From: a virus
Taxonomy: Duplodnaviria; Caudoviricetes
Direction: 5' to 3' (one strand)
Virus record (IMG/VR): IMGVR_UViG_3300023107_000007
Location: 1 to 37,870 of that record
DNA length: 37,870 nucleotides
Below are positions 16,129 through 22,445 of this stretch, one piece after another. Numbering within the stretch: position 1 is the first letter of the stretch; each line of letters begins with the position of its first letter. Below the pieces are notes generated by a model. That model searched no databases, was not told the origin of the DNA, and saw only the letters and a list, made by a program, of their open reading frames with translations. Made by a program: the position numbers and the translations under genes.

Positions 16129-17090
16129 CCGCTTTCAAAGGACTCGGCACCTACGGCAATGCAGTCGGTGTGGTCACCCCCCTCGACCACAAACTCGCAG
16201 ACGCCAGCCTCATCACCAAAGCATCCGGCAACCTGATCCGCACCGGCCTGTTCTGGGGCGGTACTGCAACGATCGTCACCGGTACCGCAGGCATGGCTTA
16301 CAGTGTCGCCGGGTACACCTGCGCGACCACCCGCGGTGTCTCGTCTGGTGCGGTCATCGGCGGCAACGACGGCGCACTGTCCGTCAGCACCAGCGCAGCA
16401 CCGGGCTCAAACTCCCGCTACGACGTTGTGTACCACTGGCACCGCGAATTCTCCCTCGATGGCACCGACTCCAACCCGGTCATCGGCGTCATCCAGGGAA
16501 CCGCCGCCGCCTCACCCACCGTCCCATCACTGGCAGCATTCCCTGGCGCTATCGCACTCGCCACCATCCTCGTGCCCGCTGGCGTCACCGCAACAAACAG
16601 CGGAACCACCATCACCCAGACCGCCCCGTTCACCGCAACCGCGGGTGCAGCGATTATGTTCCGCAACCTGACGGAAGCGAACGCGGCAACTGTCATTGAT
16701 GGCACCCGCGGCATGCTCCTCGACACCGGCGTGAACATCAATCGTGTTTCCGGCGCATGGGTGCAGGAGGTAACCACCGGCACATTCGTATGGGTCGCCT
16801 ACTACTCGACTGTCACGGCCAACAAGGTCACCCGCGACAATCGTACGGGCCTGGTGAACATCACCGCCCGCGCGTTTCCCCCCGCCGCGGTAACCGATGG
16901 TTCCTCTATCGCAACAATCCCGGCAGGCTTCCGTCCGGCGACAGACATGGAACTGCCCGTGTCGGCAACGGTTGGCGGGTCGGCTGTCACCGCCACCCTC
17001 ATCGTCACCGCCTCTACCGGTGATGTGAAGGTGTACGGCGCAGGTTCCAACAAGACCCTGTCCATCGCCGCCACCTACGCAGGTGCCTGA
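16125..17090 (+). CDS. Minor tail / receptor-binding-like protein
   Basis: APGSNSRYDVV...QGTAAASP...ALATILVPAG N-domain; IATIPAGFRP C-domain. Confidence 0.75.
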   Translation: MTAFKGLGTYGNAVGVVTPLDHKLADASLITKASGNLIRTGLFWGGTATIVTGTAGMAYSVAGYTCATTRGVSSGAVIGGNDGALSVSTSAAPGSNSRYDVVYHWHREFSLDGTDSNPVIGVIQGTAAASPTVPSLAAFPGAIALATILVPAGVTATNSGTTITQTAPFTATAGAAIMFRNLTEANAATVIDGTRGMLLDTGVNINRVSGAWVQEVTTGTFVWVAYYSTVTANKVTRDNRTGLVNITARAFPPAAVTDGSSIATIPAGFRPATDMELPVSATVGGSAVTATLIVTASTGDVKVYGAGSNKTLSIAATYAGA

Positions 17091-17788
17091 TGTCTGATCT
17101 GGTTCGCATTCCGTGGCAGCCATCGCTGTGGCTGGCTCCGTCCACGTTGGCTCTTCTGGAGGATGCGTCTCGCCGTCTGGGGCGCAACATTTACCTCAAC
17201 GGGCCGGATGCGGCTTGGCGTTCAGAAGCGCGGCAGCGGTACCTGTGGGACATCAACGGTCATAACCCGGCGAAGGCGAACGACCCGGAACGTGGCCAGC
17301 GAGCCCATATGCGGGCTGCTGCTGTTGACGCTCCGACAGATGCTGCCACCCGCAGCGCTCTGATTGCGGCGGGGATGCTCCCAGACCCGAACGAGAAGTG
17401 GCATTTCAACGACCCGCATTGGCCGTTCATGCCAATCATCAAAACCAATACTGCTGCTGCCGCTTCGAGCGCTATCAGCATCACCACTAACCCGACCGGT
17501 CAGGGCGGCAAGCCTGCACCGACTCAAGAGGAGATAGACGAAATGGCTTCCATCACTGACGCGGCGATTATTCGCAACACGGAAACGGAACAGGTGTGGC
17601 TGTTCGATAACCAGCGTGGCCTTGTCCCGCTGATCCCCACATCCGGCATCGACATCAACGCCGCCGTAGAAGCACACGCCAAAATCTTCCACATCGCACC
17701 AGACAACGCCGCCGAAACCTCACCGCCCCGCAAATATGTGCAACTCAACAACGCACAGTGCAAAGCATGGATCGCCACCCGCGGGTAA
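17090..17788 (+). CDS. Endolysin, M15-like Zn peptidase domain plus C-terminal domain
   Basis: WRSEARQ...H-x6-D (HMRAAAVD)...EKWH motifs; first gene of the lysis cassette. Confidence 0.8.
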   Translation: MSDLVRIPWQPSLWLAPSTLALLEDASRRLGRNIYLNGPDAAWRSEARQRYLWDINGHNPAKANDPERGQRAHMRAAAVDAPTDAATRSALIAAGMLPDPNEKWHFNDPHWPFMPIIKTNTAAAASSAISITTNPTGQGGKPAPTQEEIDEMASITDAAIIRNTETEQVWLFDNQRGLVPLIPTSGIDINAAVEAHAKIFHIAPDNAAETSPPRKYVQLNNAQCKAWIATRG

Positions 17789-17851
17789 CCGTCTCAAGGG
17801 ACCACACCACAACTAAATAGCCCTCGGGCACAACCAGCAAGGGGGCAACCA

Positions 17852-18337
17852 ATGTCTGACCCGTTCAGCACAAAAGGCAAAGCAGAAATGCGCCGCCTCA
17901 TTCAGACAATGAAAACGGAACCCGTGCCCGTCATCATGCCCCGGTGGATGCTGTACCTGCTGTACAGCATGTTCGCCATCCTCGGGGTGACACTCGCCAC
18001 ATTCGGGTCCGTGTCGATCAACTTCTCCACACCGCAGGGTTACATCTTCCCGTACGGCGTATCCATCTTCATCACCTCTGTTGGTGCACTCGTCGGGGCG
18101 ATTGCCACCCGCCACCAACCAGACCCAACACCCCGACTGATTGCGCCCGAACTCGCAGCCGTCATCCTCCTATTCGGCTTGCTGTCCGTGTACATCGCAT
18201 CGTCAGTAGTCCCATGGATACAAGGAGACGCCGGTAAAGGATCACTCGGCGTTGTAGTCACCCTCACCGCACTGATCCCATTCATGCGACTACTCACCCT
18301 CGGGCGGCAGGTCATCGCACGACTGGTCCGCCTGTGA
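17852..18337 (+). CDS. Multi-TM membrane protein (lysis cassette)
   Basis: About four hydrophobic segments. Confidence 0.75.
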   Translation: MSDPFSTKGKAEMRRLIQTMKTEPVPVIMPRWMLYLLYSMFAILGVTLATFGSVSINFSTPQGYIFPYGVSIFITSVGALVGAIATRHQPDPTPRLIAPELAAVILLFGLLSVYIASSVVPWIQGDAGKGSLGVVVTLTALIPFMRLLTLGRQVIARLVRL

Positions 18338-18720
18338 TCCACACCGCTGCAGAAGCAGCAACCCCCGACATTGTCCCCTTCCTGCCGATCATCTCCGCCA
18401 TCCTCGTCGTCGTCATCGGCGGTGTCATCGGCATCTACCAGATGCGATACGGGCGACGGAAAGACCAAGAACGCCCACTGCCCCCGTCATGGCCTGAAAT
18501 GTGGAAGAAGATCAGCGAACTTGACGACAAGTTGAAAGCGCAAGAAGAAACGATCGAGAAACGCGACAAAGCTCTCGGCAACATCCTCACAGCCCTTGTC
18601 GACCAGTGGCCGGCCGATCGCCCCGCCCCCATCTTCGACCCGGAAGATCTCGCCGTGGTGTCAGACATCATGCCCGGCAAATGGGCACGACGCCCACGAC
18701 CCAAACCCGCAACCCCATAA
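18334..18720 (+). CDS. Single-TM membrane protein with coiled coil
   Basis: IISAILVVVIGGVIGIY segment; GTGA overlap. Confidence 0.75.
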   Translation: MIHTAAEAATPDIVPFLPIISAILVVVIGGVIGIYQMRYGRRKDQERPLPPSWPEMWKKISELDDKLKAQEETIEKRDKALGNILTALVDQWPADRPAPIFDPEDLAVVSDIMPGKWARRPRPKPATP

Positions 18721-18730
18721 GGAGCAACCC

Positions 18731-19012
18731 ATGAGCAATGCAGTATCCGCCCTGTTCGCATCAATCGTCCGAACAGTGGTCCCCATCGTCGTCGGTGCTG
18801 TGATCGCGTTCGCGGTCGCACACGGCATCACCCTCGATGACCAGTTCGAATCGCTACTCACCGCCGCACTGACTCTCGGGTTCTCTGGCGTTTATTACAT
18901 CGCCGTGCGCATCCTCGAGACGTATGTCGCGCCTCGCTTCGGTTGGCTGCTCGGACTCGCGAAGACCCCCGCCGTCTACACACCCGAGTCGCCAGCAAAG
19001 CACGCCGCGTGA
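18731..19012 (+). CDS. Holin-like protein
   Basis: AAGGAG RBS; SIVRTVVPIVVG...YYIAVRILE...FGWLLG; two TM segments. Confidence 0.75.
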   Translation: MSNAVSALFASIVRTVVPIVVGAVIAFAVAHGITLDDQFESLLTAALTLGFSGVYYIAVRILETYVAPRFGWLLGLAKTPAVYTPESPAKHAA

Positions 19013-19449: not shown

Positions 19450-19706
19450 GGCTGGGCTCCTAACTACTGGGAGCAGACCGGCCTTCTGCAAAGTCGATGG
19501 TACGACCAAGCAACGACGTTCAATAAATCAGGCCCAGACTTTACACATCCCCGCAACGTTCAAGAAAACTTGCAACAACCAGTGAGGGTTGATCAGGGGC
19601 GGAACAAGTTTGAGGGGTTGAGTCAGAGGTGGGGGAGTGGTCGACCCGTAAGCTTGCAAATAGCACCAGCAAGAGCGGATGTGCCCACCTCTGTGTACAC
19701 CAGCCC

Positions 19707-19736
19707 TTGTCCCGGTGCCGCCGATGCCAGTAAATT
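19707..19736 (+). promoter_or_regulatory. SigA-like promoter directed at the tRNA half
   Basis: TTGTCC-18 bp-TAAATT, ending 10 nt before tRNA position 1. Confidence 0.6.
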
Positions 19737-19746
19737 ACAGGCATCT

Positions 19747-19797
19747 GCCTCTGTAGCTCAATGGAAGAGCAGTTCCGTCCTAAGGAAAGACAGAGGC
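19747..19797 (+). pseudogene. 5' portion of tRNA-Arg(CCT), probable attP core; T-arm absent
   Basis: GCCTCTG-TA-GCTC AATGGAA GAGC-A-GTTCC GT CCT AA GGAAA-GA-CAGAGGC: acceptor, D and anticodon arms are present. Confidence 0.85.
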
Positions 19798-19875
19798 TTT
19801 TCTTGTCCCCAATTGTGGTCAATAATTGCCTGTAGATCGTTGATATTCCGGGCTTTTGGTGGGAACTGAAACGCA

Positions 19876-19902
19876 CACTGGCAAACATATGGTTTGCCAG
19901 TG
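19876..19902. repeat. Perfect 11-bp inverted repeat
   Basis: CACTGGCAAAC-5 nt-GTTTGCCAGTG. Confidence 0.8.
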
Positions 19903-19951
19903 GTTGTCACCACCTATGTCACCACCTATAGTGGAAGAAGACCTAAGCAAC

Positions 19952-19986
19952 AAAAAGAGGGCCACCGGCTGGAACCAGTGACCCTC
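19952..19986 (-). terminator. Minus-strand intrinsic terminator shielding attP
   Basis: Minus strand reads GAGGGTCACTGG-6 nt-CCGGTGGCCCTC-TTTTT. Confidence 0.7.
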
Positions 19987-20112: not shown

Positions 20113-21330
20113 ATGCCCCGCAAGCGCAGCACCGGTCAAGGTGGGCTCTACTTCGACGCGGCGCGCAAGCTGTGGATAGGTTCGTACGACAACGGGTTCA
20201 CCCCTGAGGGCAAGCGGAAACAACGCCGGGTCACCTCCAAGTCGCAATCTGTGGCACGCGCAAAGCTCGCGAAGCTCATCCACGAGATCGACACCTACGA
20301 CGCCCCACTCGGCAATCAGACGGTTGCTGAGTGGGGCGTTTCGTGGTTAGAGATGGTGAAGGCCAAGAAGCCGCAGACGTACCGCACCTATAACTCCATC
20401 TTGAAGACATGGGTTCTGCCCCAGATCGGACGGCGGAAAGTCAAAGACATCCGCCCCTCCGACCTGGCGAAGGTCTACGTGAACATCAAAGCTGCCGGAC
20501 GCGCGTCGTCTACTGCCCTCAAGGCGCACAACGTCATGTCGGCCATGTTCGAACAGGCACGACTTGAGCGGATAACCGACCGGAATGTGGCCGCCGACAT
20601 TCGCCCACCGAAAGCGGCGAAGACCACTCGTGACAGTCTCAGCCCCGCGGAAACGTTCAACGTCCTGGAAGTGGCGAAGCAGATACCGGACGGCTCCAAA
20701 TGGCTGGTGTCTCTCTACGCGGGCATCCGACAGGGGGAGCGGCTAGGCGCGACAATCGATTCCGTAGACCTCGAGCGGGGCACATTCACCGTCCGCTGGA
20801 ACCTGGTCGAAGGCAACTACGAACACGGGTGCGCTGGCGACTGCGGCAAGAAAGCAGCCGGACACTGCCCGCAGAAACGGCTAGTGATCCCCGACGTACC
20901 CGACTACCGGCTACTCAAAGGGCGGCTCATGCTGGTCCCGCCGAAGTCGGGCGAAGAACGCACCTTCCCCATCCCTGAAGGACTCCGGGCCATCCTTCAA
21001 AACCAGATCGACCGGGCCAACTCACAACCGAACCCGCACGGACTGTTGTGGCCGGCAGAAGACGGCTCACCCATCCTCCCCAGATCCGATCAGGAACAGT
21101 GGAGAGCGTTACTCAGAGCGGCCGGAATCGACAGACCTGGGGCGACCACCCACTGGGCTAGACATACCGCCATCTCCGACATGACAGCAGGTGGAACCGC
21201 TGACCGCGTGATTGGCGAAATGGTCGGACATAAGTCGCCCGGCGTGACCGGCAGATACCAGCACGTCTCGTCACAGGATGCATCCGAGGCAATGGACAAG
21301 CTCGAGAAGAGACGTCAGCTCGAAAGCTGA
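20113..21330 (+). CDS. int: Tyrosine integrase
   Basis: GAGGAG RBS; arm-binding N-terminus; catalytic GIRQGE, HWARH, VGH and RYQH. Confidence 0.95.
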   Translation: MPRKRSTGQGGLYFDAARKLWIGSYDNGFTPEGKRKQRRVTSKSQSVARAKLAKLIHEIDTYDAPLGNQTVAEWGVSWLEMVKAKKPQTYRTYNSILKTWVLPQIGRRKVKDIRPSDLAKVYVNIKAAGRASSTALKAHNVMSAMFEQARLERITDRNVAADIRPPKAAKTTRDSLSPAETFNVLEVAKQIPDGSKWLVSLYAGIRQGERLGATIDSVDLERGTFTVRWNLVEGNYEHGCAGDCGKKAAGHCPQKRLVIPDVPDYRLLKGRLMLVPPKSGEERTFPIPEGLRAILQNQIDRANSQPNPHGLLWPAEDGSPILPRSDQEQWRALLRAAGIDRPGATTHWARHTAISDMTAGGTADRVIGEMVGHKSPGVTGRYQHVSSQDASEAMDKLEKRRQLES

Positions 21331-21752
21331 CGGGCCAACGCACCAGACAAACCAGTGCGCCACGAACGCCCATAGGTGCGCCCGCCGAGACGCTGCAAAC
21401 ACTGCTCCTGGTACGCGGTCACAATGTCGACTGTCACCTGCAGCTCGTCAGCTATCGCGGCGGGGGAGGGATCGATAGATTCGGCCGCTGCGTAATCCTC
21501 CGGCGCAATGAGCATCTGTGCAGCATGACGCTCCGCTCTTCTCTCGTTCGCGCTGGTGCTGCACTCATCCCCCATGAGGCAGTGAGCGAGCTCGTGGGCC
21601 AGAACAGACCGAAGTTCGAACGGGGTGAGGCCAAAGCTGAGATGAATTGTGCGAGTCGAGTGGTCGTATGCCCCTAGGACTTCATCGTCATCAAGGTGCG
21701 AAATGTGCACTCGGACCCTGATACTTGCGGCGATCTTCATAAGTTCTTGCAT
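21315..21752 (-). CDS. ImmA/IrrE-family metallopeptidase (anti-repressor)
   Basis: RSVLAHELAH...ERRAERHAAQMLI; C-terminal IADELQVT HTH. Confidence 0.9.
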   Translation of the reverse strand: MQELMKIAASIRVRVHISHLDDDEVLGAYDHSTRTIHLSFGLTPFELRSVLAHELAHCLMGDECSTSANERRAERHAAQMLIAPEDYAAAESIDPSPAAIADELQVTVDIVTAYQEQCLQRLGGRTYGRSWRTGLSGALARQLSS

Positions 21753-21770: not shown

Positions 21771-22127
21771 TTAGTCAGCAGAAGGTGAGTCCTTCTTCTT
21801 GGTCGACCTCTTCGTCGCCATGTTCGCAGTCTCCACGTTGCCCCTGACACTGAAGTCGGGAACGTCCGGGGTCCAGCCTTCATCGCGCACTTCGCGCACG
21901 GCCTTTTCCAGCACCTCATCGATTTCTAGGCCCAGCGAATAACAGACTGCCTCGAGCTGGTCGACGTTCAAAGGCTTGGTGCCGCCCAGCACGGACGACA
22001 TATAGGACTGCGAAAGACCCGCTACGCGCGCGATCGATGCTTGCGTGAGGCGGTACTTGGCGATCCGCTCGCGAAGTATCTCTGCGATCTTCTCGTTGAG
22101 TGGGCTCGGCTGAAGCGTATCTGACAT
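21771..22127 (-). CDS. Immunity repressor (XRE HTH)
   Basis: LTQASIARVAGLSQSYMSSVLGG; divergent from cro; no RBS, probably leaderless. Confidence 0.85.
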   Translation of the reverse strand: MSDTLQPSPLNEKIAEILRERIAKYRLTQASIARVAGLSQSYMSSVLGGTKPLNVDQLEAVCYSLGLEIDEVLEKAVREVRDEGWTPDVPDFSVRGNVETANMATKRSTKKKDSPSAD

Positions 22128-22212
22128 GAGATAAATCATCGCACACGAGAAATTAGATTGCACTGGTGCTAGACAACGTATCTTGTGTGCGATACGGTAT
22201 TTCACATGAGCT
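22119..22212. promoter_or_regulatory. Divergent lysis/lysogeny promoters with four 14-bp operator-like sites
   Basis: TAGACA-17-TACGGT at 22170-22198; ATCKCAnnTGMGAT-like sites at 22119, 22138, 22180 and 22199. Confidence 0.7.
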
Positions 22213-22445
22213 ACCAAAGAAGAACCGAAGTCGCGGCCGGGGAAGTACGAGCCCACCTCGGTCGCACCCGTCAGACCGTCAAGGATCTGGCGGACGCAAC
22301 GGGCATCCCAATTTCTACACTCAACCGCCGACTTTTGGTTTTGAGTGCATTCACCATTGACGAGCTGGACGCGATCGCCCGTCACTTCGGAGTTGAGATA
22401 ACAGACCTCCTCCGTCCACCTGTCGCCATCGAGGTGGCATCGTGA
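22206..22445 (+). CDS. Cro-like HTH regulator
   Basis: TVKDLADATGIPISTLNRRL...FTIDELDAIARHFGV. Confidence 0.85.
   Translation: MSYQRRTEVAAGEVRAHLGRTRQTVKDLADATGIPISTLNRRLLVLSAFTIDELDAIARHFGVEITDLLRPPVAIEVAS

Follow-up and report, generated by a model that had tools for sequence, protein, structure and literature searches.

A reversed tRNA-Arg(CCT) attachment site in a temperate phage and a candidate promoter for the rebuilt tRNA

Phage genome and attachment site

The stretch of DNA analyzed in this study (the window, 37,870 nucleotides) is, judged from its gene order, a temperate tailed phage genome. Its left part holds the genes for terminase, portal, capsid and tape measure, followed by the integrase, an ImmA-like peptidase, a repressor, a Cro-like protein and then replication genes (Table 1). 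ARAGORN called no whole tRNA gene in the window. In the interval from the tail genes to the attachment site (17090-19012), the usual location of lysis genes, three ORFs are without a PHROG or Pfam match and one further ORF matches only a family of unknown function. The integrase gene begins 323 nt past the half-tRNA described below and contains seven AGA codons and no AGG codons; most structural genes are without AGA. Relatives of this integrase in bacterial genomes (34-65% identity; 10 loci in the full-length range and one partial, L010-L020) were recovered with an alignment scan, a single-sequence scan of bacterial genomes having returned none. Every record belongs to Microbacteriaceae, which is therefore the likely host family. 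The closest integrase of a cultured phage is 42% identical (vB_MoxS-R1), and the region from attP to integrase has no blastn match among cultured phages. When the half-tRNA was compared with cultured phages, the matches listed (25 of 240) were whole mycobacteriophage tRNA-Arg genes.

Table 1. Features of the attachment region and integrase module of the window
Feature	Position	Strand	Remarks
Candidate distal -10, TAAGCT	19649..19654	+	98 nt upstream of tRNA +1; predicted start ~19661
Left (P) arm-type direct repeats, putative integrase arm-binding sites	19680..19701	+	
-35 named earlier, TTGTCC, not conserved	19707..19712	+	varies across 5'-type sites
Palindrome, AT-rich centre holding TAAATT (19731-19736)	19723..19745	+	
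5' half of tRNA-Arg(CCT), attP homology segment	19747..19789	+	Rfam; 43-nt identity to host genes
Symmetric crossover core TTCC-GTCCTAA-GGAA	19773..19787	+	common to 5'-type, 3'-type and whole-tRNA elements
Complement of acceptor 5' strand, then T-run	19790..19801	+	T-armless three-way fold
Perfect 11-bp inverted repeat, right arm	19876..19902	.	conserved across clade
Right (P') arm repeats overlapping promoter-like TTGTCA-17-TATAGT	19904..19932	+	10/12 consensus
13-bp hairpin and T-run, terminator-like for leftward transcription	19957..19986	-	similar hairpins in relatives
Tyrosine integrase, 405 aa	20113..21330	+	PF00589, PF22022, PF14659; phrog_1
ImmA/IrrE-like metallopeptidase	21315..21752	-	PF06114
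Immunity repressor (HTH), putative start codon	21771..22127	-	repressor PHROG matches, ORF ending at 21771
Cro-like HTH protein	22206..22445	+	PF13443, PF01381

A canonical tRNA attP carries the 3' half of the gene, so that the host promoter is retained after integration. The attP of the window holds the 5' part and not the 3' part: the acceptor 5' strand, the D-arm and the CCT anticodon arm are present, and no T-arm follows the core. Rfam scores this segment as tRNA at 30 bits (gathering score 29, E 0.0004). It matches intact tRNA-Arg(CCT) genes of Microbacteriaceae exactly over 43 nt (L137, L138, L139, L144, L189, L193 and others), and in metagenome contigs, which break at the tRNA, host tRNA 3' halves run on from 19786-19789. 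With this identity, the missing T-arm, the flanking repeats and the adjacent integrase, the proposal of the first-pass annotation that the attP carries half of this tRNA is borne out, as is the match to Microbacteriaceae that it expected. It is highly improbable that the phage integrates elsewhere, with the half-tRNA as a relic or as a T-armless small RNA that stands alone. The 52-nt fold of the half-tRNA is stable (z -3.6) and the attR of the window phage itself was not seen in the metagenome contigs, yet arm repeats lie on both sides, the arrangement is conserved together with integrases as little as 56% identical, and the core is where a real lysogen is split.

Paired direct repeats flanking the core are the usual arm-site anatomy of an attP. 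Here a tyrosine integrase is adjacent and arm-type repeats, to which it would bind, lie on both sides of the core. The left repeats keep their position in relatives carrying the 5' half (5'-type) and in those carrying the 3' half (3'-type), and resemble the right units at 19905-19914 and 19917-19926 (repeat family D1). The anticodon stem-loop is the sole segment common to 5'-type, 3'-type and whole-tRNA elements, with slight variation of the flanking 4-mers of the core among them. The 7-nt anticodon loop (19777-19783), bordered by inverted core-type flanks, thus appears to be the shared core of an anticodon-centred (A) site and presumably the overlap region for crossover. A palindrome comparable to that at 19723-19745 is found at equal distance to the core in 3'-type attPs and in one whole-tRNA element; it is likely an accessory-protein site, and possibly a second promoter as well. 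The inverted repeat in the right arm is likely a site for a recombination protein. The best promoter match of the region overlaps the right arm repeats. It is likely the integrase promoter, and the overlap suggests integrase autorepression by analogy with KplE1 intS, for which PMC2951348, as far as its abstract goes, reports autoregulation with arm repeats over the likely integrase promoter at attL, as here. In one 5'-type phage (L041/L005) the attP and the integrase are separated by ~1.5 kb that contains small ORFs, compared with 0.3 kb in the window.

Integrated form in Subtercola vilae DB165

A prophage of Subtercola vilae DB165 encodes an integrase 64.5% identical to that of the window, and both of its junctions were recovered, on separate contigs. 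At attL (L110) the order is host -10 (TAAACT), 5' half, core, phage arm and integrase, and no tRNA is called. At attR (L106) phage tail genes are followed by an arm repeat, an intact tRNA-Arg(CCT) and then cellular-type genes (Fic, adenylate-cyclase and channel genes). The half was found in two copies only in this draft genome, L110 and L106, and the intact tRNA only at attR; the 5' fragment lies upstream of the element and the intact gene downstream of it, as in the reversed class of tRNA-targeted elements. Thirteen Subtercola genomes were searched for comparison, of which one was without a match and 11 yielded a locus. In all 11 of these, the DNA that precedes the intact tRNA matches that preceding L110, and the gene downstream of L106 matches the gene following the tRNA in one of them (L183), which looks like an empty site since it matches both flanks of the S. 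vilae junctions. The exchange of the DNA upstream of the tRNA upon integration, which the first-pass annotation had predicted and proposed to look for in prophages with related integrases, is thus seen directly in one lysogen, a relative and not the window phage: a truncated half remains at attL, and at attR phage DNA precedes an intact tRNA. The S. vilae prophage region (L196, G001:C19:1-20000) also has tRNA-Trp(CCA) and tRNA-Asn(GTT) calls.

No second 5'-type lysogen was found among 401 genomes of the family, of which 291 matched the 5'-half pattern and five had two copies. G094, G292, G299 and G370 were considered as lysogens and rejected, their copies being overlaps at contig ends or gene duplications, and the upstream DNA, where readable, being of host type. 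A shorter core pattern had at least two matches in ~60 genomes, among which G001, G003-G005, G019, G292 and some first loci were classified. Another attL with the 5' half was found (L019/L104); its partner junction is absent from the draft genome. A metagenome pattern scan returned 14 loci, comprising the window record (L176), four repeats of known viral contigs, one different tRNA (L171) and eight new loci; none of the 13 true matches is an attR, and L169 is cut at the core. G299 (C5, 2868.7-2870.4 kb) has a facing pair of complete tRNA-Arg(CCT) genes (L148 and L153), 1.5 kb apart and each behind the same host promoter, which is either a duplication or an assembly artefact.

The promoter and control of the rebuilt tRNA

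The first-pass annotation had assigned the rebuilt tRNA to a -35/-10 pair immediately upstream of the half, TTGTCC (19707-19712) and TAAATT (19731-19736). The pair is present as described (18-nt spacer, 8/12 consensus); the role given to it holds up poorly. We compared 15 5'-type sites, 14 from phages and metagenomes plus the S. vilae attR, which represent 10 lineages once six close kin are collapsed. The integrase is downstream in nine of the 14 phage and metagenome sites, four of the others ending too soon and one being cut at the core. A second hexamer farther upstream, of the form TAnnnT, is found at positions -95 to -99, immediately beyond the left arm repeats, in 15/15 sites including the S. 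vilae attR, and in 0/5 3'-type attPs (L044 was omitted as a copy of L042), as expected of attPs that need no promoter. The DNA around this distal hexamer averages 41% identity across sites, and the patterns used to collect the 5'-type sites excluded its region. In 216,448 tests, each pairing a three-letter gapped pattern with a position from -250 to -72, it is the only pattern present in 10/10 lineages; the maximum over 12 shuffles was 6-7 lineages. It resembles the -10 of the host tRNA promoter, where TAnnnT occurs at -15 to -19 in 31/34 upstream sequences, many of them from close relatives. No -35 is conserved at the distal hexamer, and inspection by eye reveals no -35 consensus in the host tRNA promoter. 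On these comparisons the pair at 19707/19731 is probably the wrong promoter and the candidate moves to 19649-19654, likely a constitutive replacement promoter for the tRNA. In several 5'-type sites a motif, GGGGGAGTGG, precedes the distal -10 by a variable distance (19630-19639 in the window, also L164, L168 and L172).

Transcription of the rebuilt tRNA from the proximal pair, alone or together with the distal hexamer, is unlikely. TAAATT stands exactly 10 nt before tRNA +1, in the register of the host -10, and the six sites of the close group all keep the proximal TAnnnT, as do L040 and L173. These eight of the 15 sites represent three of 10 lineages, however, and the seven that lack it include the only real attR, that of S. 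vilae. The -35 is not conserved, being altered already in L038 and L165, close kin with the same upstream block, and the pair falls below the promoter-scan threshold. The proximal -10 also lies within the palindrome common to 3'-type attPs and thus is probably first a feature of the recombination site.

We therefore favor, with a probability of about 0.78, the reading that the tRNA is rebuilt at attR behind phage DNA and is transcribed, likely, from the constitutive distal promoter at -98. Crossover would occur in the anticodon loop of the half-tRNA, leaving the intact tRNA-Arg(CCT) at attR behind phage DNA. The distal promoter, outside the arm repeats, would then drive it with a transcript that starts at ~19661 and crosses the repeats, giving a leader of ~86 nt. 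Removal of leaders by RNase P is established tRNA processing and would free the tRNA from this one; at the S. vilae attR the leader folds separately from the tRNA. The host promoter, remaining at attL and aimed at the integrase, would transcribe the truncated half only. The distal promoter is best read as a repair of the damage caused by integration.

Past the core of the window, eight nucleotides pair with the first eight of the tRNA and are followed by a T-run; the structure has no CCA. The predicted 52-nt fold has a free energy of -20.9 kcal/mol and none of 200 shuffles was equally stable. Among 14 folded 5'-type junctions (13 attP-type sites and the S. vilae attL), the closing stem is present in eight, which form two groups and show A-U/G-U at one position, and absent in six, the S. 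vilae attL among them. Stem and T-run are probably a terminator that damps transcription running on toward the integrase, which would start at the phage promoter in attP and at the host promoter in attL. The model for this reading is ICEKp1, whose stems are reported as attenuating in the part of PMC13023037 available to us; in ICEKp1, as at the attL expected of the window phage, the host tRNA promoter points into the integrase with such stems between. In L164, L165, L041 and L168 the stem-closing sequence equals the host acceptor 3' strand. The closing sequence may be what is left of a whole tRNA gene minus its variable loop and T-arm, and may record the origin of the 5'-type attP.

The same system offers a different explanation of the distal hexamer, namely as the integrase promoter of the free phage, with promoter switching that depends on the state of the element and with expression of the attR tRNA as a by-product. 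In attP the hexamer does point at the integrase, and at attL the host tRNA promoter would replace it, as the accessible text of PMC13023037 describes for ICEKp1. Against this, 3'-type sisters, oriented alike to the integrase, have the distal hexamer in 0/5 cases, a separate 10/12 promoter match stands just before the integrase, and in the window phage a terminator-like stem follows the half-tRNA. We regard a free-phage integrase promoter as very unlikely and retain the distal hexamer as the candidate tRNA promoter.

The larger claim of the first-pass annotation, that the prophage might control decoding of AGG codons in its host, is unsupported: no link between repressor and operator held up, AGG use is ordinary, and tRNA-Arg(UCU) is also present in hosts. 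The findings do not show phage control of host translation. Regulation of the rebuilt tRNA by the repressor or by arm-bound integrase, tuning AGG decoding, is quite unlikely. In its favor, transcription from the distal promoter has to cross the arm repeats, located 20-40 nt inside the predicted transcript, and the KplE1 integrase represses a promoter overlapping attL, according to the abstract-level account in PMC2951348. In the window and in L036, the predicted start site also shares a 9-nt match with the repressor/cro spacer. Such a match is at chance level (~5% of random windows), a 3'-type control gave 11 nt, and the match is missing from L037, L038 and S. vilae. A repressor operator at the distal promoter was accordingly rejected, the match failing in 3/4 other 5'-type phages and the control scoring higher. 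AGG accounts for 22/516 arginine codons in 27 phage ORFs, a figure that may truly be lower given that 12 of the 22 come from two long ORFs possibly in the wrong frame (32765 and 36190), and for 8/177 in seven host ORFs. Four of five host genomes, S. vilae included, have tRNA-Arg(UCU), and excision would restore the host promoter. In E. coli, tRNA-Arg(UCU) reads AGG and makes argW, the CCU tRNA, dispensable (PMC4652775, seen in part).

A bolder version can be stated in which reversed sites place the promoter outside the arm sites, transcription of the host tRNA runs across the recombination site, integrase and excisionase bound at attR throttle tRNA-Arg(CCU) and slow genes containing AGG, and the host promoter at attL is redirected to a functional T-armless 52-nt RNA. 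We hold this as speculative and improbable. If true, host genes containing AGG would slow as the prophage commits to excision, and the tRNA-like RNA from attL could be a decoy for anticodon nucleases. The constitutive distal promoter remains our preferred reading.

Three repairs of one tRNA and known systems

By sequence comparison, one integrase family keeps tRNA-Arg(CCT) working in three ways, with a 3' half, a 5' half or a whole spare gene. Ten 5'-type loci have a recovered integrase, window and S. vilae counted. Six 3'-half phage loci (L039, L042, L043, L044, L049 and L058) are oriented to the integrase in the same way, and the opposite orientation is seen in four junctions with a 3' fragment; the 3' half, with the anticodon-loop core, is carried or left in these six loci and in L012, L013 and L050, with L057 as the tenth. 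Two elements of 17-20 kb split tRNA-Arg(CCT) and have a whole divergent spare copy aboard, L105 (G002:C12, near 101.4-101.6 kb) and L151 (G019:C55, near 20.7-20.9 kb). The spare tRNA lies right outside the arm repeats, with its own -10 and a changed anticodon stem. These two elements are candidates for tRNA-dependent integration in Microbacteriaceae. All three designs preserve tRNA-Arg(CCT), which suggests that the gene is useful.

In a 13-row integrase tree the 3'-type L039 groups with the window (support 95/98), and monophyly of the seven 5'-type rows is rejected (AU p 0.0099, LG+G4). Near-identical and distant rows were omitted from this tree, and the groups were set from the att sequence after a quick 40-row tree had been viewed. 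With L039 nested beside the window and the 5'-type grouping rejected, the carried half has changed at least twice, among integrases 56-93% identical. The switches arose by evolution of the attP or by exchange of modules.

The first-pass annotation had ranked this among the strongest candidates in the window for an undescribed system. The layout is already known. In the Islander survey a 5' tDNA fragment marks 159 of 3919 islands, ~4% of tRNA-targeted islands (PMC4383910), and the reversed orientation is credited to Zhao and Williams 2002 in PMC6563490. From the parts of PMC4383910 available, the 5'-fragment islands share with the window the displaced 5' fragment, the anticodon-centred site and an element encoding its integrase; those parts contain no promoter analysis, whereas a candidate promoter position is available here. 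The MabA1 prophages of Mycobacterium abscessus, integrated at attB-5 in tRNA-Met, have the same reversed layout (Dedrick et al. 2021, PMC8092301, seen in part). In the MabA1 record MW584152 the half-tRNA is at both ends and the integrase comes right after attL. At the prophage end TATGCT stands at -94, outside the arm repeats, together with four other TAnnnT hexamers, so the match is consistent with the distal promoter without being discriminating or proof of it. MabA1 differs from the window in tRNA and host family, the available portion of PMC8092301 does not locate the promoter, and sisters that switch halves are a feature of the window family.

A different comparison is with the tRNA-dependent lysogeny of Fionnbharth and Boilgate, where related integrases use one tRNA and different repairs (Guerrero-Bustamante and Hatfull 2024, PMC10865867, seen in part). 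There the tRNA supply of the lysogen depends on a phage promoter, which is a likeness to our reading of the window. The cores of those phages, as described in the text available, are ~10 bp and rebuild no tRNA, whereas the window shares 43 nt with attB and would rebuild the host gene, as the intact tRNA at the S. vilae attR illustrates. A whole phage tRNA of the disrupted isotype, also part of that system, is absent from the window and present in L105 and L151. The ICEKp1 integrase gene uses the adjacent host tRNA promoter, and neither the ICEKp1 nor the KplE1 abstract describes a phage promoter driving a host tRNA. We found no published location of a replacement promoter at a reversed site in a search that missed most of the subscription literature.

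What is new here is the promoter position, the three repairs within one integrase family and the T-armless closure of the half-tRNA. The promoter position is testable, with a natural negative control in the 3'-half sisters and a cultured lysogen in S. vilae DB165, and the results are relevant to attP module evolution and to designing integration vectors for Microbacteriaceae. The family also extends beyond tRNA-Arg(CCT): integrases ~43-45% identical to that of the window are located just after an intact tRNA-Thr(CGT) in L011 and L048, a target switch within the integrase family as read from these sequences.
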